Assembly (NCBI GenBank): GCA_965207885.1
Contig: OZ242311.1
Location: 1,632,001 to 1,696,000, forward strand
DNA: 64,000 nucleotides
Source of the DNA: Candidatus Latescibacterota bacterium
Lineage (GTDB): Bacteria; Latescibacterota; UBA2968
Direction: 5' to 3'
Below the pieces are notes generated by a model. That model had not been told where the DNA came from, searched no databases, and worked only from the letters and a program-made list of their open reading frames with translations. How positions within the stretch are numbered: the stretch's first letter is position 1; every line of letters begins with the position of its first letter. Below, piece after piece: positions 2,993-16,344 of the stretch. Both the position numbers and the translations under genes were made by a program.

Positions 2993-3370
2993 ATGAAAAA
3001 ACAACCCTTCACCAGCACGCGCGGCAACATCCCCAAATTCCCCTACTCACAAGCCATAATCTACGGCGACCTCATCTTCATCTCTGCCCAACCCCCGGTC
3101 GATCCGGAAACCGATGAAATTGTCGGAGACGATATCAAAACGCAAACCCGGTGCATACTCACCAATATCTCGGGCATACTCGAAGACGCGGGAACATCGC
3201 TCGACAACGTTCTAAAAGTAACCGCCATCCTCAAAGACCGCTCTCTTTTCTCGGACTTCAACGACGCCTACGCCGAATTTTTCCCGGAGAATGCACCCAC
3301 GCGCACGCCCATCTTCGGCGATACCGGCGTACACCTCATACTCCTCGACGTCATCGCGGGGATGGAATAA
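2993..3370 (+). CDS. ridA: RidA/YjgF/UK114 family protein
   Basis: PYSQAI, IFISAQ, NV.KVT..L, F..FN.AY.EFF...PTR motifs; AGGAG RBS. Confidence 0.85.
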   Translation: MKKQPFTSTRGNIPKFPYSQAIIYGDLIFISAQPPVDPETDEIVGDDIKTQTRCILTNISGILEDAGTSLDNVLKVTAILKDRSLFSDFNDAYAEFFPENAPTRTPIFGDTGVHLILLDVIAGME

Positions 3371-4379
3371 CCTGAATCGCCAACTTACTCCCCACGCGAA
3401 TCGCCTGCAACATATTCACGGCCTTAGCGATGCCCTTGCCCGCGATATCATAAGCCGTACCGTGATCCACAGACGCCCGCACAATCGGCAAGCCCAGAGT
3501 CACATTGACAGCCTCATCAAACGCCACCAGCTTTGCGGGCACATGGCCTTGATCGTGATACATCGCCACCACGCCATCGTATATTCCATTGTAGGCCTTC
3601 AAAAAAGTCGTATCCGCAGGCAGAGGCCCATCAACGCGCCAGCCCTCACTCAGAGCCTTTTCAACTGCGGGACGGACGACCTCGGCATCTTCGCTACCGA
3701 ACAAGCCATTTTCGCCCGCGTGTGGATTTAACCCGCATACTGCTATCCTGGGGTCTAACTTACCCAGACCGACGAGCACATCGCGGGTAAGCCGAACCGT
3801 ATCGTAAATCAGATCAACCGTAAGCCTATCGGGAACCTCGTGCAACGCAATATGCCCCGTCACATGCGACACATTCATGCGATCAGATACCAGCATAAGA
3901 TGTGCGCGAGCTGCGCCCGATTTCTCAGCCAACAACTCCGTATGCCCCGCAAAAGGATAACCCGCCAGATTCATCGCCTCCTTATTTAAAGGCGCCGTCA
4001 CAATCCCGTCAATTCGATCCGCCATCGCCAGATCAACCGCGCGAATCACCCACTCAGCCGCTACTCTACCCGCCTCGCGACACACCTCGCCCATTGCAAT
4101 CTGATCCACATCCACATCGATCGGACACCAGACATCAACACACCCAAACTCAAACGCACCATCTTCGGGTTGCTTCACAACCCGCACATCCAATCGCACA
4201 CCAGCCACAGTCATATCGCGCTTCAATATTTCCGGATGCCCAATAACCAGCGGCTTACACACGCGATAGCTTTCCCCACGTGCCAGAGCCTTCAAAATTA
4301 CTTCCGGTCCTATACCACACGGATCGCCCATCGTAATGCCCATCAGCGGGCGTTTGTCTAAAACGTCTTTCTCTAACAT
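3351..4379 (-). CDS. pdxA: 4-hydroxythreonine-4-phosphate dehydrogenase (PdxA/PdxA2)
   Basis: ITMGDPCGIGPE, TAPLNKE, GHTE, GLNPHAGE, MYHDQG, SVDHGTAYDIAG. Confidence 0.95.
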   Translation of the reverse strand: MLEKDVLDKRPLMGITMGDPCGIGPEVILKALARGESYRVCKPLVIGHPEILKRDMTVAGVRLDVRVVKQPEDGAFEFGCVDVWCPIDVDVDQIAMGEVCREAGRVAAEWVIRAVDLAMADRIDGIVTAPLNKEAMNLAGYPFAGHTELLAEKSGAARAHLMLVSDRMNVSHVTGHIALHEVPDRLTVDLIYDTVRLTRDVLVGLGKLDPRIAVCGLNPHAGENGLFGSEDAEVVRPAVEKALSEGWRVDGPLPADTTFLKAYNGIYDGVVAMYHDQGHVPAKLVAFDEAVNVTLGLPIVRASVDHGTAYDIAGKGIAKAVNMLQAIRVGSKLAIQVIPSPR

Positions 4380-4388
4380 AAAAATCCC

Positions 4389-4417
4389 AAAAAAAGTGGC
4401 GGTCTCAAAACCGCCAC
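4389..4417 (-). terminator. Intrinsic terminator after the RND gene and small ORF
   Basis: GTGGCGGT/ACCGCCAC 8-bp stem followed by T7 on the minus strand. Confidence 0.8.
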
Positions 4418-4422
4418 AATCC

Positions 4423-4500
4423 TTACTTCTCTTTTCCCTGCCACCTCACCACCAGGACCGCAATGATATACACAACAATCATCCCAATCACTATTTCCAT
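4423..4500 (-). CDS. 25-aa single-TM small protein MEIVIGMIVVYIIAVLVVRWQGKEK (not in ORF track)
   Basis: AGAGGA RBS 6 nt upstream of ATG; hydrophobic core with a basic tail; lies between the RND stop codon and the terminator. Confidence 0.65.
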   Translation of the reverse strand: MEIVIGMIVVYIIAVLVVRWQGKEK

Positions 4501-4519
4501 TACACATCCTCTTTAATCA

Positions 4520-7500
4520 TCAATCATCGTCGGCCGTATCATAAGCCTCATCCCTCGCGCGAGAGGCAAATGCGCCAGCGCTCAAACGCCGAATCGCCAG
4601 ACGCAAATCGTCGAGCAAGGTATAAAACAGGGGCACAACCAGCAACGTCAGAAATGTCGAGGCCAACAGCCCACCCATCATCGTGCGTCCCAAAGGCGCA
4701 TAAGACGAACCCATTGCATTGCTATCGCCCACAGCCATGGGCAGCAAGCCAAAGACCGTTGTAAACGTCGTCATCAAAATGGGGCGAAAGCGATTGTGCC
4801 CCGCTTCCATAATGGCATCAAAGCGATTCATACCATCGGCACGCAAGCGATTGACCATATCCACCAGCACAATCGCGTTATTCACCACCACACCGATCAA
4901 CACAATCACCCCCACAGACGCCATCCTATCCATGGGCGTGCCTGTCAAATACAGCGTCCAGTAAACACCCAAAAAAGAAAATGGAATTGAAAAAAGCACT
5001 GAAAACGGCAAAATAAACGACTCGAACAAAACGCCCATCAACAAAAACACACATATCACCGCCATCACAATTCCCAGCCGCTCAGAGGCTTCGTCCTCTC
5101 TAAGTTGCTTGAAACTCTCTCCCTTGTCCCACGAATACCCGCGGGGCAACTCGAGACCATCCATCACTTTGTCAATCTCCTCGGCCAGACCCTTAATATC
5201 TGCACGCGTCGTATAAGCCCTGACACGCAACTTGACCTTGCCATCGTACCGCGCAATGCGCCCCATCCCCCGCGAGACCTGGAAGAAGGCGACTTCGCTC
5301 AAAGCCACTTCTGTACCATCGTCGGTCTCAAACGGAAAATTGCGCAACTGATTCAAATTTTGTCGGTCTGTCCTATCCAGAAAAAGCCGCACCCGCACCT
5401 CGCCGTCATCGGACTTAAAACGGGGCAACGACACCCCTTGCAGACCATAAGAGATATAGCGCGCAACATCCCGTACAGAAATCCCAAGTCGTTTCGCCCG
5501 CTCCCGATCAATCACGACCCGCACCTCGTCATCGGCAAGTTCCAAATCCGTGTCAACGCCTACAAGAGACGGGATTTGTCTCAAGCGTCGCTCGACCTCA
5601 TCGACGAGACTGACCAGGACCTCGGTATCATCGCCTTCCAGATAAATCGACACGCCCGGATCACTACCACCGCCCTCATTGCGAGCCCCTTCCACGGAAT
5701 GCCGCACACCCACATATCTGGGCATATTTTTGCTAATATCTTCCGCGACTTCAGCCCGTTCCATGGGTCCAGCAACGGGTATCCCCAGAGCACTGCGCGT
5801 ATTTTTGTACGCCACGTACCACCACGGATCATCGCTCTTAGCCGGCATATACAAGCTCAGATTACCGTAGCCAGGTCGGTAGTAAACGCGCAGGGTTTCA
5901 TAGCCGTATTTTTCACGCCGCGCCTCCAGAAATTCCTCAACCTCCCCCACAATATCCTCGGTTTCTTCTGGCGAAAAGTGACGCGGCAACCTCAACCGCA
6001 CATCCAAATCGTTAAACGCGCCACCGCGGGGGCGGTCTGCGCGCTTCAGATTATCCAGGGGATACATCGTCGTTGCCGCAAGTGCCAGCGCGATCAACAC
6101 CGCGTCCCGGCGGTGTCGCAATGTCCAACTCAACATGCGCTCATAAATTCCTCGCGCCTTCACAATAATTTTGGGATTGGGACGCACCCGACCTTTGCCC
6201 AATCGCACCGACGCCAGGGGAATAAACAACAGCGCCACAAATAGCGATCCCACCAGAGCTACCCCAACCGGAACGCCCAGGCGCGTCATGTAAAAAGTCA
6301 TAAACATATTGCCGCTAAACAACATCATAGGCAAAAACACCACCACCGTCGTAAACGTCGCCATAGTAATGGCCTGCCCCACCTCACTCGCACCAAAGAT
6401 AGCGGCATCTTCGGGTGCCTCGCCATTGCCCCGCCGGCGATAAATATTCTCCAAAATCACAATGGCATTATCCACAACCAGCCCAATCCCAACCATAAGT
6501 CCCATCATAGTCACCACATTGAGCGACCAGCCGACAAAATACAACGCGGTCATCGCAATCATCACACACAGCGGAATAGCCAATGTAATAATGGCCGTCA
6601 TCCGCACGGTACGCAAAAAGAACAACAACACCAGCGCGGCAAATAGCCCGCCCCAAAGCCCGGTTTCCCGAAGATTGCGAATCGATTCCTTAATAAAAAA
6701 CCCCTGATTGAACATCACCTGAAACGACACCTGCCCGGCCATGCGCGGATCTTCTTCGATAGCTTTCAATTTTGCCACAACCCTATCGGTCACATCCGCG
6801 ACATTTGCACCCGACTCCTGTTTGATGCCAAAACTCATACCTCTTTTGCCATCAATGCGCTGCGTCCACGATTTTTCGGGCACCTCGAAAACCACCGAAG
6901 CCACATCGCCAAGGCGCACCTTGCCTGCCCGCGATTGAATCTGGATATTTTCAATTTCCCGCAACGTGACATACTGCGCCAGCGACCGCACGTAAAATTT
7001 CTTTGGTCCCTCCCGCACATACCCCCCGGCAAGTGCGAAATTGTCGCCCCTCAAGGTCGAAACAATCTCGCCAATGCGCACACCGCGCGCCCTCATGCGA
7101 TCTTGATCCACCTCCACCATCACTTCCTTGCGATCCGCGCCAAAAATATCCACGCGCCCAACCCCATCCACGCGCTCCAGAGGATACTGCACAAAGGTCT
7201 CGATAAACTGAAAGGGTTCTGTAATGGCCGAGTCAATCGACACAGCCACATACATAACAGACTTCGAATCCTGATCGTATTTGTGAATACGCACCTCGTC
7301 TCGCGCCTCTTCTGGCAACAGGGGCTTGAGGCGCTCGAGCCGATCCGAAACCTGATTGTACGCAACCACCATATCTGTATATTGACGAAATTCCATATGC
7401 ACGCGCGCGCCCCGAGAGCTGTAGCTACGCAGGGTCTTAATACCCTTTACGGTACGCAGCGTCTCTTCCAGCGGCAGGGTGATCTGTTGCTCGGTCTCCT

Positions 7501-7687
7501 GCGGAGAGGCATTGCGAAACCCAACAGATACAGCTAAAAATGGCGGCGTCAAACCATCGGGCATCATCTCGACGGGCATACGCACATACGCCACCGCCCC
7601 CAGTACCAACAGCGCGACAAGGCACATGGTAACAGACACGGGTCGCAACACCGAAATACGCGGTAAAAGAGAAGATTTGGGATTCAT
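4520..7687 (-). CDS. AcrB/AcrD/AcrF-family RND transporter
   Basis: 1055 aa; GLVVDNAIVILENI (TM4), GVVVNNAIVLVD (TM10), RFRPILMTT. Confidence 0.95.
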   Translation of the reverse strand: MNPKSSLLPRISVLRPVSVTMCLVALLVLGAVAYVRMPVEMMPDGLTPPFLAVSVGFRNASPQETEQQITLPLEETLRTVKGIKTLRSYSSRGARVHMEFRQYTDMVVAYNQVSDRLERLKPLLPEEARDEVRIHKYDQDSKSVMYVAVSIDSAITEPFQFIETFVQYPLERVDGVGRVDIFGADRKEVMVEVDQDRMRARGVRIGEIVSTLRGDNFALAGGYVREGPKKFYVRSLAQYVTLREIENIQIQSRAGKVRLGDVASVVFEVPEKSWTQRIDGKRGMSFGIKQESGANVADVTDRVVAKLKAIEEDPRMAGQVSFQVMFNQGFFIKESIRNLRETGLWGGLFAALVLLFFLRTVRMTAIITLAIPLCVMIAMTALYFVGWSLNVVTMMGLMVGIGLVVDNAIVILENIYRRRGNGEAPEDAAIFGASEVGQAITMATFTTVVVFLPMMLFSGNMFMTFYMTRLGVPVGVALVGSLFVALLFIPLASVRLGKGRVRPNPKIIVKARGIYERMLSWTLRHRRDAVLIALALAATTMYPLDNLKRADRPRGGAFNDLDVRLRLPRHFSPEETEDIVGEVEEFLEARREKYGYETLRVYYRPGYGNLSLYMPAKSDDPWWYVAYKNTRSALGIPVAGPMERAEVAEDISKNMPRYVGVRHSVEGARNEGGGSDPGVSIYLEGDDTEVLVSLVDEVERRLRQIPSLVGVDTDLELADDEVRVVIDRERAKRLGISVRDVARYISYGLQGVSLPRFKSDDGEVRVRLFLDRTDRQNLNQLRNFPFETDDGTEVALSEVAFFQVSRGMGRIARYDGKVKLRVRAYTTRADIKGLAEEIDKVMDGLELPRGYSWDKGESFKQLREDEASERLGIVMAVICVFLLMGVLFESFILPFSVLFSIPFSFLGVYWTLYLTGTPMDRMASVGVIVLIGVVVNNAIVLVDMVNRLRADGMNRFDAIMEAGHNRFRPILMTTFTTVFGLLPMAVGDSNAMGSSYAPLGRTMMGGLLASTFLTLLVVPLFYTLLDDLRLAIRRLSAGAFASRARDEAYDTADDD

Positions 7688-7829
7688 GGCAAATTCAGTA
7701 GTTAGTTAGCACCACCAGAATATCGCTCTTAATTATCGAAGATTTACACAAATTTGGCAAACAGAGTTTGCGATGCCCTGTCAGAGGTCGGCGAGTTATG
7801 CAAATTAAAACGTCTTTTGTTAATTTAAG

Positions 7830-11945: not shown

Positions 11946-14762
11946 TCAATCACCCACGCGCTGCAACCCCGGTCCCTCTTCGTAATAATAACTCCCCGGA
12001 AAGAACGTTTCATTATCGGGCATCGACTCAACCAACCGCACCTCTGCCGCACACACCTTGTACTCGGCAGTCCCCGTCACCGCATCGCCCACATCATTGG
12101 TCAGCACATTGGCGCGTGCCTCGGCAAAATGCAATGGCATCCAGATACATCCCGGACGCACTTGCCGCGACAAAATAGCCCGCAACTGCACACTCCCGCG
12201 CCGCGTCGTCACCTCCACCATATCCCCGTGGTGAACACCCCGCTTCCGCGCATCGCTCGGATGCAACTCTACAAAAGCCTCGGACTGTTTCGCATCAAGC
12301 CCGGACTCTCGGCGCGTCTGGGTTGCGGCATTGTAGTGATACAGCGTGCGTCCCGTAGAAAGAAAAAGACCGTAATCTTCATCTGGCAATTCCGCCGGTG
12401 GGATATAATGCACGGGCATAAACAATCCCTTACCGCGCAAAATGCCATCTTCGTGTAAAAATTTTGTACCCGGATGATCCGCATCGGGGCACGGCCACTG
12501 TAAGCCCGCTATGCTCTCTTCACCTGCTACGCGATCTATCTTTTCCAATTTCTCGTGACTGATACCGGCAAATTGGGGAACGTCTTTAACCATCTCGGCA
12601 TAAACTTCCGCTGGATCTTTATACGACCAATTCGCGCCCATCTTATTCGCCAGCATAACCAGAATCTCCCAATCTGGAAGCGCTTCCCCAGGAGGTTCAA
12701 CTGCTTTGCGAACCCTCTGAATGCGGCGCTCTGAATTGGTAAACGTCCCCTCCTTCTCGGCAAACACAGCTGCGGGCAAAATCACATCGGCAAAACGCGC
12801 CGTCTCATTCATAAACGCATCCTGCATCACGATAAAATCGACATTATTCAATCCCTTTTCCAACTCGAGAACATTGGGTTCGGACAACACAATATCTTCA
12901 CCCATCACAAAAAAGCCGCGCATCTGTTCCCCCACCGTCTTCATCATCTCATTGAGATTCAGACCCGGCACAGGGGACAGCGGAACACCCCAGGACTTTT
13001 CGTATTTTGCCCGCACTTCTGGATCATCCACACGCTGATAACCCGGATAAAACATCGGCGTAGCACCCGCGTCATTCGCACCCTGCACATTATTCTGTCC
13101 GCGCAGTGGATTCATCCCGGTCGATGGCTTGCCCAGATGCCCCGTCATCAAAACCAGATTTGCAAGCGCATACACATTATCCGTACCGTGTGCGTGTTCC
13201 GTAATGCCCAGGGTATAGTATATACCCGCTTTTTCTGTCGTAGCATACTGCCGCGCAGTCCAGCGAATATCATCTGCTGAAATACCCGTTATCTCTTCAG
13301 CCTTTTCGGGTGTATAAGACGCGACAGCCTCTTTGACCTGCTCAAAATTTTCAGTCTGATTTTCGATAAATTCGCGATCGATCAAATCCTCTGCCACAAT
13401 CACATGCGCCATGGCATTGAGCAACCACACATCTGTACCGGGATTGAGTTGCAAATGCTTTTCCGCAATAGACGTCATCCATATCGCCCGGGGATCGGCG
13501 ACAACCAAGGTCGCGCCTTTGCGAATCGCGCGCTTCATTTCCATAGCGATAATCGGATGTGCCTCGCTCGTATTGCTGCCAATCACAAACAGAAAATCAA
13601 CATCGCGTATCTCGCCAATTGAATTCGTCATAGCACCCGCACCAAATGTTTCGACCAGACCGGCCACAGTTGGCGCGTGTCACGTGGCCGCACACTGATG
13701 GACGTGATTTGCCCGAAACAGCGCGCGCGCCATTTTCTGAACGAGAAAATTTTCCTCCATCGTACACCGCGACGAACTCACAAAACCCAGGGCATCTGCG
13801 CCGTGTCGCTCTGCAACGCCCAACAATCCTTCCGCTGCTCTTTCGAGCGCATCGTCCCAGGTAGTTGGATACAATACACCATCCTCACCGCGCACAAGCG
13901 GCTCAGTCAACCGATCTTTGTGGTGCACAAAGTCATAGGCAAAGCGTCCCTTGACACACAAATTGCCGTCATTGGTCGTCGTGCCCGGCGGTGGACTCGT
14001 CACCTTTACAATCTGCCCCTTGCCATCGCGACCTCCTGGATCCACATTGAGGTCGAACTGACAACCCACCCCACAAAAGTTGCAAGTTGACCGAACCTTT
14101 ACCAATTCACGCTCGGGTTTTTGCCCGCGCATCAGTGGCAATTTTTCATTCATAGCACCAGTTGGACACACATCGATACATCCACCGCACAACTCGCACG
14201 TCGTATCCAGCAGAGATTTTTCTTCCACCGTAGAAATCGTCGTATGTGACCCTCTACCCGCAAGAGTAATAGCCGAAACACCTTCTATTTCCTCGCAATA
14301 GCGCACGCATCGCGCACACGCAATACAGGTATCGGGATTAAAATCCACATAGGGATTGCGATCCTCCCTATCTCCTCGCATCGGCTCCATCCATCCCCAA
14401 TCCATTGGCGCATCGAACTCGGCAGCCATATCCAGCAATAAATCCGGCGAACCGACTTCCGATACTTCCCGCTCGTGCGGATGATCGGTCATGTACAAAG
14501 CCATCAGAGTTTGGCGGTGCCGATCAATACGCTCATTCTCGGTCGTCACCACCATCCCGTCTTGTGCGATGCGCGCACAGGCCGGCGTCATCAACCGCTC
14601 GCCATCAACTTCCACAAGACAAGAGCGACACGCACCCGCGGGTTCTAAACGCGGATCGTGACACAGGGTCGGAATTTCCAATCCCTGACGAGATGTAATG
14701 TCCAGCAGGGTCTCGCCTTCGGCAAAGCATATCGTCTGTCCGTTCAATATCAATTTATTCAT
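11946..14762 (-). CDS. fdhF: Selenocysteine-containing formate dehydrogenase alpha subunit (Mo/W-bisPGD, N-terminal 2Fe-2S and 4Fe-4S domains); in-frame UGA at 13680-13682
   Basis: ORFs 13680-14792 and 11946-13667 are in the same frame and read HQCAAT-TGA-HAPTVAG at the Mo-ligand position; CNFCGVGC, LCVKGRF, PLRGQNNVQG, EKEGTFTNSERR. Confidence 0.92.
13638..13679 (-). promoter_or_regulatory. Bacterial SECIS element
   Basis: Directly after UGA: CGCGCCAA...UUGGUGCG lower stem and GGCC-GGUCU-GGUC apical hairpin, resembling the E. coli fdhF SECIS loop. Confidence 0.75.
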
Positions 14763-16344
14763 CAAACTCCTCGGGGAAGAATTTTTGGGCACTCGTCAGG
14801 GGGAGAGAAGCGATTTGCCCAAGACCACATATCGAACCCTCATTCATTTGCCACGCCACGTCTGCTGCGTGTTGCAAGTGAGGGTTGTGGTCCTGTTCCC
14901 GATTGCAAATGCGATTTTCCAGTGCCTCATGTAAATACCGCGTGCCAATGCGACAGGGGGCGCATTGCCCGCAGCTTTCATCGTGAAAAAATCTCAACTG
15001 TTGACTGACTGACCATTTTATATCCACCGTGTCGTTCAACACAACAACACCGGCCGAGCCGAGCAGCGAACCCAACCCATCCATTGTCTTAAAATCCAAT
15101 GATTGATCCCTGTATTTAGCCGGCAAAAAGCCCGAACTCGCACCCCCGGGACTAAACGCTTTCGGAGTACCAATATATCCGCCGGCCTCTTCGACCAACT
15201 CATCTAAAGTCACACCGAGCGGCAACTCATAGACACCGGGGCGTTTGACATGCCCGCTAATACAATACACTTTTGACCCCGCCTCTGTGCGCCCCAAATT
15301 GAGAAACCAATCGCCGCCTCTTGAAATAATCGAAGGCACGCACGCAATAGTTTCCACATTGTGAATAAGTGTGGGTTTTCCCCACAGACCGTATTCTGTG
15401 GGATAGGGTGGGCGCAAACGCGGCATTCCGCGCTTGCCTTCCAATGCCTCTAAAAGTGCCGTCTCCTCGCCGCAAATATACGCACCTTGCCCCGAGTGCA
15501 TGTGAAAACGGATATCGGGAAATATATTATATGATTCAAACTCTGCAATTGCTTTTGTCATCACAGCCTTTGGAAATGCGAACTCGCCCCGCAAGTACAA
15601 ATAAACATCTCTCGCCCCGATTGTATAAGCCGCAATCGCCAATCCTTCAACAACCAGATCGGGACGCCGCATCAAAATCTCGCGGTCTTTAAATGTACCT
15701 GGCTCGCTCTCATCGCCATTTAAAACCACATAACGCGTGGTCTCTTTTTCTGAACACACAGCATTCCACTTAAAAGACGCGGAAAAACCCGCGCCACCGC
15801 GCCCCTGCAACCCCGACATCTCTATTTCTTCGATAATTTCTTCGGGACGCATCTTCGCGGCCTTAGCAAACGCTTTCCCCGACCAATCGGCCTGCCCCAA
15901 CAAATTGATCGCCATAGTATCTGGATCATCCACCTCTGGTCCCACATGTCCCAAGTTGCCACTGGACACTATCTCTGGCAGGAGCCGCGTCCAATCGCCA
16001 TCTGCCCGCACCACATCCTCGACCGATACAGCGGGCAACACATCGCGGTCTCGCAACACCGCAGGCGGACGATCACAAGCTGCCAGACACGAACACCCCA
16101 TCGCGGGCAGGTCCGCATCTACCATCGCCTGCAGCACCTGATCTGCACCCGCCATGCGACACGACAAACCCGTACATACCCGCACTTTTTTATCCGTATC
16201 AGTCAACAAATCAAAAAAACTACCCACGCCATAGACCTGCGCTTCGGGAACGCCAGTTTGTTGCGACACCTCCCGCGACACGCCTGAATTTAACCCGCCT
16301 TCAATCTGAAGCAGATCGGGCACATCGGCCTGTTTTTTATTCAC
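14755..16344 (-). CDS. NuoE-NuoF fusion, NAD(H)/FMN-binding diaphorase subunit of the FDH
   Basis: N-terminal CTGLSC...CLAAC (2Fe-2S); GRGGAGF, NGDESEPGTFKD, GAYICGEETAL, ESCGQCAPCR...ICGLG; GTG start after GAGG. Confidence 0.9.
   Translation of the reverse strand: MNKKQADVPDLLQIEGGLNSGVSREVSQQTGVPEAQVYGVGSFFDLLTDTDKKVRVCTGLSCRMAGADQVLQAMVDADLPAMGCSCLAACDRPPAVLRDRDVLPAVSVEDVVRADGDWTRLLPEIVSSGNLGHVGPEVDDPDTMAINLLGQADWSGKAFAKAAKMRPEEIIEEIEMSGLQGRGGAGFSASFKWNAVCSEKETTRYVVLNGDESEPGTFKDREILMRRPDLVVEGLAIAAYTIGARDVYLYLRGEFAFPKAVMTKAIAEFESYNIFPDIRFHMHSGQGAYICGEETALLEALEGKRGMPRLRPPYPTEYGLWGKPTLIHNVETIACVPSIISRGGDWFLNLGRTEAGSKVYCISGHVKRPGVYELPLGVTLDELVEEAGGYIGTPKAFSPGGASSGFLPAKYRDQSLDFKTMDGLGSLLGSAGVVVLNDTVDIKWSVSQQLRFFHDESCGQCAPCRIGTRYLHEALENRICNREQDHNPHLQHAADVAWQMNEGSICGLGQIASLPLTSAQKFFPEEFDE

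Follow-up and report, generated by a model that had tools for sequence, protein, structure and literature searches.

The 25-codon open reading frame (ORF) found behind an RND permease gene in the window, i.e. the whole 64,000-nucleotide stretch of DNA that was analysed, is, on the evidence of sequence comparison, a genuine coding sequence under purifying selection. It belongs, as far as the searches described below indicate, to an unnamed family of single-helix microproteins that is restricted to one genus. The reading that we favour, and that we consider moderately probable, is that of a selected micro-gene, born by truncation from a membrane anchor, whose product is a single-pass inner-membrane peptide. 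The known single-helix microproteins of bacteria thereby gain an unnamed family, from a phylum without cultured members. It also provides a fairly clear case of microprotein origin, not from non-coding DNA but from an anchor left by an internal deletion, which was then kept, diversified and duplicated. Finally, it carries a caution. The position between pump gene and terminator had suggested an AcrZ-like subunit to the initial annotation, but the comparison points to an inherited position and to a family that also occurs away from pumps.

The ORF and its signals

The window lies in a complete genome of 6.2 Mb, and the genus is represented by 21 species genomes. The microprotein gene occupies positions 4500..4423 of the minus strand (25 codons and a stop, with the ATG at 4500-4498 and the TAA at 4425-4423). 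The RND gene ends with a TGA at 4522-4520, and the ATG follows after a gap of 19 nt. The ribosome binding site (RBS) is a Shine-Dalgarno-like purine-rich heptamer (4507..4513, minus strand) with a 6-nt spacer to the ATG; it is unpaired in the centroid fold of a 147-nt region. An intrinsic terminator (4389..4417, minus strand) comes next, its stem (4417..4396) beginning 5 nt past the microprotein stop and consisting of 9 bp (6 of them G-C) with a 4-nt loop, followed by seven T. Its folding energy is -19.3 kcal/mol (z = -4.5), and none of 200 shuffled sequences was as stable. The start 19 nt past the RND stop, the RBS and the terminator right behind the ORF had all been placed correctly by the initial annotation, which left only the minus strand unstated.

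Translation of 4500..4423 likewise agrees with the 25-aa peptide described there, with a single predicted helix and a basic C-tail. A short acidic N-terminus (the acidic residue is at position 2) leads into a hydrophobic helix some 16 residues long, followed by Arg-Trp-Gln and a tail rich in Lys. According to the positive-inside rule, the one or two residues of the acidic N-terminus would lie outside, and the Arg-Trp-Gln and Lys tail would be cytoplasmic. A library of predicted proteins contains an entry identical to the 25-residue microprotein. An alternative frame of 44 codons (4373-4507, minus strand) starts within the RBS and reads through the terminator; it is open at 11 of the 15 loci described below and broken at the other 4. 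Because the 25-codon ORF has its own RBS and is placed between the pump gene and the terminator, the microprotein is most likely translated from that RBS and, by position, on the pump mRNA.

The pump gene and its transcripts

The RND permease gene (4520..7687, minus strand) encodes 1,055 aa with 12 predicted membrane helices (Pfam ACR_tran, E 1.9e-199), and scores under all curated NCBIfam subfamily cut-offs. It is an orphan pump gene, with neither an adaptor nor an outer-membrane-factor gene beside it. Its neighbours are a divergent PhyH-family gene upstream and, downstream, pdxA, which encodes 4-hydroxythreonine-4-phosphate dehydrogenase (3351..4379, minus strand; TIGR00557, 358 bits against a cut-off of 290). 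A promoter-like site (7732..7760, minus strand) matches 10 of 12 consensus positions and stands 45 nt upstream of the RND start; such sites are defined by consensus match only, and the whole region contains 4 of them for 6.0 expected from shuffles. This site is a candidate for the start of a transcript that would comprise the RND and microprotein genes, and perhaps pdxA. The consensus scan found no promoter-like site between the pump gene and the microprotein ORF. The ATG of pdxA (4379) is located 9 nt past the T-run of the terminator, which therefore leaves no room there for a promoter of its own.

Public RNA libraries labelled as sponge metagenome contain near-identical short pieces of the pump gene, one of them differing at a single letter out of 208. 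A contig of 4,913 letters in one of the runs, from a relative, spans 3378-7778 with about 92% identity (341 differences and 17 gaps); such a contig does not establish a single transcript and could stem from DNA present in the library. It includes the pump gene, the ORF, the terminator and pdxA, and the length changes within the ORF are in frame and sum to 12 nt. The runs X1, X2 and X6 contain short pieces within the pump gene only, for which absent cover over the ORF is not evidence.

Conservation and selection

An ORF is present in frame behind the orthologous pump gene in 15 of the 21 genus genomes. All 15 loci keep the start codon and have a matching RBS core with the same 6-nt spacer. The conservation of ORF and RBS by synteny, which had been proposed as a check, is borne out at these 15 loci. 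The distance of 5 nt between stop and terminator is found at 14 loci; at the 15th the stop is lost, and the frame, of 35 codons, runs on and ends inside the hairpin loop. The ORF lengths are distributed as follows: 25 codons at five loci, 28 at two, 29 at five, and 26, 20 and 35 codons at one locus each. All length differences are multiples of three, and the reading frame is preserved. The invariant columns (window numbering) are M1, E2, V4, I5, L16, V18, R19, W20 and Q21, at the two ends. Central indels of 2, 3 and 8 residues shift the helical register between these conserved ends, which makes a rigid interface over the full length of the helix less likely.

Codon-level selection, the other check proposed at the outset, gave a concordant result. 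The 15 ORF sequences were grouped by similarity into type A (5 sequences), type B (6) and type C (4). Within types, the variable columns fall at codon positions 1, 2 and 3 in 6, 5 and 21 cases respectively. The summed within-type pN/pS is 0.17 in the ORF frame, compared to 0.77 and 1.37 in the other frames, with the limits that the pairs are non-independent and that grouping by similarity could inflate the silent excess. Between-type figures are independent of the grouping: type B versus type C gives a pN of 0.15 and a pS of 0.72, i.e. a ratio of 0.21. Types B and C, each compared to the paralog described below, give a pN/pS of 0.25-0.28. Across these comparisons the other frames give 0.54 to 2.2, and pS ranges from 0.72 to 0.96.

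We also considered chance. A degenerate pattern built on the two ends has one match in the window, for 0.00 expected (100 shuffles). As a genome baseline, stop-to-stop frames of at least 300 codons were searched for an ATG ORF of 18-45 codons within 40 nt and with a similar RBS core: 42 of 3,487 long frames have such a small ORF behind them, and only 2 of these ORFs are hydrophobic, the microprotein being one. In-frame conservation, low pN/pS and this baseline together argue for a coding sequence under purifying selection.

Some alleles are damaged. Besides the stopless locus, one of the 15 retains only 20 codons, not enough for a membrane-spanning product. The 8 other library entries include two that cross into the alternative frame and one without a stop. 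Some of these damaged alleles and frame-switch hybrids may be homopolymer errors of long-read assemblies.

Range of the family

The two-end pattern was scanned against one genome per species (about 185,000 species). It retrieved 12 records, all of this genus, and one chance match that was discarded for an in-frame stop after 10 codons. The sole match among JGI metagenome contigs was also discarded, as the longer frame that contains it is not hydrophobic. When 1.84 billion representative proteins were searched with a profile, 9 reached E 0.001 or better; every one belongs to the microprotein family, and among them are the window peptide and a divergent 29-residue member (P0010). In 168 genomes of the phylum, searched by profile in all six frames, the 15 known loci were recovered, with E from 1e-18 to 5e-8. 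The family has no match above noise in Pfam, NCBIfam, PADLOC or PDB. The best score of the 35-residue paralog against the ESM Atlas is 0.82, which is below the meaningful level.

A longer form and a probable origin by truncation

The weakest credible match in the phylum (E 0.006, in G018) corresponds to the N-terminus of a 198-residue protein, of which a 194-residue ortholog is found in G011; both genomes belong to sister species of the ORF carriers. This long form is present in only 2 of the 53 genomes of the order (G011 and G018), and in none of the other 51. It has 8 close relatives (P0011-P0018, 76-95% identity) among 5.8 billion proteins, none of them with a Pfam family or a name, and PADLOC gave no match for it. 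Profile-profile comparison of the microprotein family with the N-terminus of the long form gives a probability of 94.8% and an E of 4.9e-8 over 26 columns. The first 28 or so residues of the long form, together with the RBS context upstream, match the microprotein. At the DNA level the short and long forms align from the end of a 66-residue gene, through the RBS, to the Lys codons. The C-terminal part of the long form has a pN/pS of 0.30 and is therefore a real domain; the structure model of the 198-residue protein (10-row alignment) has a mean pLDDT of 46.6.

Gene order was compared in the three genomes that link the two forms. In G005 the RND gene is followed by a 66-aa gene, a 29-codon ORF, the terminator and pdxA. 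In G011 the order is RND gene, 70-aa gene, inserted element, 194-aa gene, terminator and pdxA. In G018, which is rearranged, it is an ABC ATPase gene, a truncated 64-aa gene, the 198-aa gene, the terminator and pdxA. The short ORF and the long gene hence occupy the same slot before the terminator and pdxA. The terminator itself is conserved at all ORF-bearing loci, at the ORF-less locus of G001, and downstream of the long gene in both G011 and G018. The shared slot and the N-terminal homology argue that the micro-ORF was not born as a pump subunit.

A mechanism is suggested by a short purine-rich repeat which is present twice in the long genes, once after the Arg-Arg-Gln-Ala-Lys codons and once after the stop, before the terminator. 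A deletion of about 0.5 kb between the two repeats would remove the cytoplasmic domain and yield nearly the junction of the short form. That the change went from long to short, with the micro-ORF as the anchor left by this internal deletion, seems to us likely; the direction is drawn from the mechanism and the repeats, the outgroups having neither form. After truncation, the stub would have been kept by selection on its amino acids, and would have split into allelic types shuffled by recombination. The anchor stub would also have been copied to a second locus, where it would have given a stand-alone gene of 35 codons.

The 66-70-residue gene codes for a protein with two hydrophobic stretches, unrelated to the microprotein (L010 1269-1466, minus strand; L019 1284-1493, minus strand; L108 1456-1647, plus strand). 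It is found in 3 of the 21 genus genomes: in G005 and G011 it directly follows the pump gene, and in G018 a 5'-truncated copy remains. Neither Pfam nor PADLOC has a family for this protein, which is a candidate for another small partner within the pump operon. The inserted element of G011 (L110 2143-3576, minus strand) lies between the 70-residue and long-form genes; judged by translations alone, it carries a serine-recombinase-like gene and a TnpB-like gene of 469 residues.

Losses and allelic types

A maximum-likelihood tree was built from 27 pump proteins, leaving out G006 (truncated match) and G016 and G031 (in-frame stops). The 16 close orthologs form one clade with a support of 100/99. 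The short form is absent behind the pump orthologs of the sister clade (4 of 4) and of other genera (9 of 9). Two genomes without the ORF, G012 and G014, are nested within the clade of close orthologs. In both (L007 and L015) the ORF and the terminator are cleanly absent, the pump gene is kept, and pdxA begins within the final codons of that gene. An 8-nt string common to the pump end and the pdxA start in related species would allow this deletion. The G001 spacer aligns at the terminator and partly at the RBS, with no start codon or open frame; it may be a decayed copy or the ancestral state. The microprotein gene is dispensable, because it was deleted in G012 and G014 and because the second copy is missing from 14 of the 21 genomes.

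Types A, B and C are scattered across the pump tree, and three species with 99% identical pumps carry A, C and B. Between species, the identity of the flanking DNA is 86-100%; for the ORF core between types it is only about 51%, with silent sites near saturation. From the scattered types and the near-saturated silent sites we infer that the types are old alleles moved by recombination. Among the 16 close orthologs, no variable position in the membrane helices of the pump tracks the microprotein type.

A stand-alone second locus

The six-frame search of the phylum also detected a paralog of the microprotein (paralog 2) at a second locus in 7 of the 21 genus genomes, all of the same clade (E 6e-6 to 9e-5). 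It has 35 codons and is about 50-60% identical to the microprotein over the helix. It has its own signals: an RBS, a promoter-like site about 70 nt upstream (10 of 12 consensus positions) and a hairpin with a T-run. The flanking genes are a divergent HEAT-repeat gene and a convergent WG-repeat gene, and no RND gene is present within the 10 kb examined around it. Its pN/pS is 0.21 overall, with 0.07 for the first 25 codons and 0.80 for the tail. The 14 genomes from which it is missing include the window's genome, where a gap of about 276 nt leaves the site empty except for the hairpin. Since paralog 2 is solitary, the peptide is a functional unit on its own, for which co-transcription with the pump is not needed.

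Comparison with known small membrane proteins

AcrZ of Escherichia coli has 49 aa and binds the RND pump AcrB; the available text of PMC7267776 reports that a proline near position 16 is required for this, the P16A variant losing the AcrB interaction. None of the 19 aligned family sequences has a proline in the helix. The microprotein shares with AcrZ a small inner-membrane format, an N-terminal single helix, a polar C-terminal tail and some link with RND pumps; moreover paralog 2, like acrZ, is encoded away from pump genes. It differs in being half the size, in occurring in one genus only, and in being derived from the anchor of a longer protein. The initial annotation saw no evident sequence relation to AcrZ, and the searches confirm this: the 19-member family profile has 0 matches at E up to 10 against all PDB chains, AcrB-AcrZ entries included, and no Pfam or NCBIfam family was assigned. 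Pfam at E up to 10 returned only sub-threshold generic helices, the best being TM_ErbB1 with 19.5 bits for a cut-off of 27.1.

KdpF (29 aa, part of KdpFABC) resembles the microprotein in size class, in its single helix and in a place in the transporter operon, which for the microprotein is putative, to the extent that the accessible part of PMC12648545 describes it. However KdpF travels with its transporter, whereas the microprotein is missing behind most pump orthologs outside one clade and its family has a pump-independent paralog. In numbers, the ORF accompanies 15 of the 21 orthologs in the genus and 0 of the 9 in other genera, and a pump-free locus exists in 7 genomes. WatS1-5 of Methylomonas sp. 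DH-1 are small ORFs of about 50 aa that alter the specificity of the RND pump WatABO, according to the available sections of PMC10355033. They are, like the present family, homologous single-helix small ORFs in several copies with a link to an RND pump, a likeness judged from their description. Unlike the microprotein, and as far as those sections go, they are twice as long, co-regulated with the pump without standing behind the permease gene, and functionally linked to it by genetics. The type I toxins Fst, Ibs and TisB, in the portion of PMC12648545 that covers them, are alike in size, single helix, charged ends and narrow, patchy range; by the definition given there, the microprotein is a small hydrophobic one-helix peptide of that kind. 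It differs in that a simple consensus scan gave no sign of an antitoxin RNA, that the RBS is exposed, and that the window copy lies inside a putative operon. The microprotein is not a member of the AcrZ, KdpF or WatS families; by analogy, it may at most work like them.

Possible functions

In the favoured reading, that of a selected anchor-derived peptide, the product would be a free membrane helix whose conserved ends dock onto a larger inner-membrane protein, or alter the lipids around it. The co-encoded RND permease is the first candidate for the binding partner, a possible one that we would not call probable, and we give much the same chance to a partner that has nothing to do with the pump. 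A complex prediction with the microprotein and the transmembrane pieces of the permease (residues 1-45, 325-565 and 855-1035, 27-row alignment) gave 0.00 and 0.00 for a mark of 0.32; as it was run without controls, it is uninformative either way on pump binding. We regard as a long shot the idea that the bare anchor helix became a free-standing regulator of RND permeases, with types A, B and C and the paralog as specificity variants under balancing selection that recombination carries from species to species; a microprotein born by truncation would then retune a pump. If the link with the pump were true, the microprotein would be, to our knowledge, the first case outside Proteobacteria of a helix modulator encoded in the operon of its RND permease.

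The closest alternative in content is the operon-encoded RND modulator of the initial annotation, of which the selected ORF between pump gene and terminator stands, the accessory role having been drawn from position alone. The peptide would then be a dedicated accessory subunit of the adjacent RND permease, made from one mRNA with it, that binds the transmembrane domain and tunes or stabilises it in the way of AcrZ or KdpF. An RBS of its own 19 nt past the pump stop and a terminator directly after are what one would see, and in both clades of the genus a membrane-anchored product is encoded in the slot behind the pump (the long form in G011, the short one in G005 and 14 others). The second small membrane-protein gene (66-70 residues) directly behind the pump in G005 and G011 points the same way, and AcrZ (PMC7267776, PMC12648545) and WatS1-5 (PMC10355033) are precedents, as presented in the available parts of these papers. 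We nevertheless judge this alternative rather unlikely. Paralog 2 is monocistronic and far from RND genes. The long form is intact in G018 though a rearrangement moved it away from the pump gene, G012 and G014 kept the pump and lost the ORF, and none of the 13 orthologs of the sister clade and other genera has the short ORF behind it. Transmembrane positions of the pump do not co-vary with the peptide, pumps that are 99% identical carrying A, B or C, and the peptide is devoid of the proline kink that AcrZ needs for AcrB in the accessible account of PMC7267776. A membrane-active peptide of the type I toxin kind, which depolarises the inner membrane in excess and of which a copy landed at the end of the pump operon, appears quite unlikely. 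With fewer than 60 residues, one helix and short charged ends it fits that class as outlined in the available text of PMC12648545. The very narrow range, the presence/absence polymorphism at both loci, the old shuffled alleles, and the solitary short transcription unit of paralog 2 with its strong promoter-like site would also suit a toxin. Yet a simple consensus scan found no antisense promoter-like site around paralog 2, the RBS of the window copy is exposed and not sequestered in the fold, and constitutive co-transcription with a 3.2-kb permease gene would be unusual. No PADLOC, Pfam or NCBIfam match to known toxin families was obtained, and in the homologous long form this helix serves as a plain anchor.

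Two further explanations dispense with a function of the peptide. A stop codon close to a hairpin weakens termination, and the ORF could act only in cis: a ribosome stopping 5 nt before the stem would hinder the hairpin and set the read-through into pdxA. The constant 5-nt distance at 14 of 15 loci fits this scheme, as do the pdxA ATG 9 nt past the T-run and the one RNA-library contig that bridges the terminator. In G012, G014 and G016, pdxA adjoins the end of the pump gene or overlaps it, so that the two would normally be co-transcribed. Selection, however, acts on the amino-acid sequence and not on ORF length alone, paralog 2 is equally constrained though its next gene is convergent, and the fold offers no alternative anti-terminator structure, so that we find a purely cis role very unlikely; a cis effect on the terminator and on pdxA read-through may coexist with a peptide function. 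The remaining alternative, a functionless and slowly decaying leftover of the deleted long gene, perhaps still translated, is in our opinion very improbable. It would explain the derivation from a longer gene, the damaged or shortened alleles, the clean losses and the very narrow range. It agrees poorly with a pN/pS of 0.17-0.28 and silent sites saturated between types, with a frame intact at all 15 loci that have the sequence, and with a duplication that has its own signals and whose second copy is still more constrained. A leader peptide or attenuator was also considered and rejected: there is no competing structure in the fold, the amino acids are constrained, and the paralog has no downstream gene in the same direction.

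Additional observations

Several features of the pump gene and of the genome were noted in passing. In the permease, residues 404-407 and 935-937 are Asp-Asn in helix 4 and Asn-Asn in helix 10, and are invariant in 27 relatives; AcrB has Asp-Asp and Lys at the matching positions. The orthologous pump genes of G016 (L020) and G031 (L026) contain one in-frame TGA each. The only other hydrophobic small ORF of this genome that has an RBS and directly follows a long gene (L105 730-825, minus strand, i.e. about 4229730-4229825 of G000:C1) has 31 codons, is located 41 nt past a gene of the Na+/H+ antiporter family, and has no family. Elsewhere in the window, two molybdopterin-oxidoreductase ORFs of the minus strand (14792..13680 and 13667..11946) are in the same frame, with a single TGA (13680-13682) between them. 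The context of this TGA presumably resembles the selenocysteine site of formate dehydrogenases, and the pair is probably one selenoprotein gene and not two genes.
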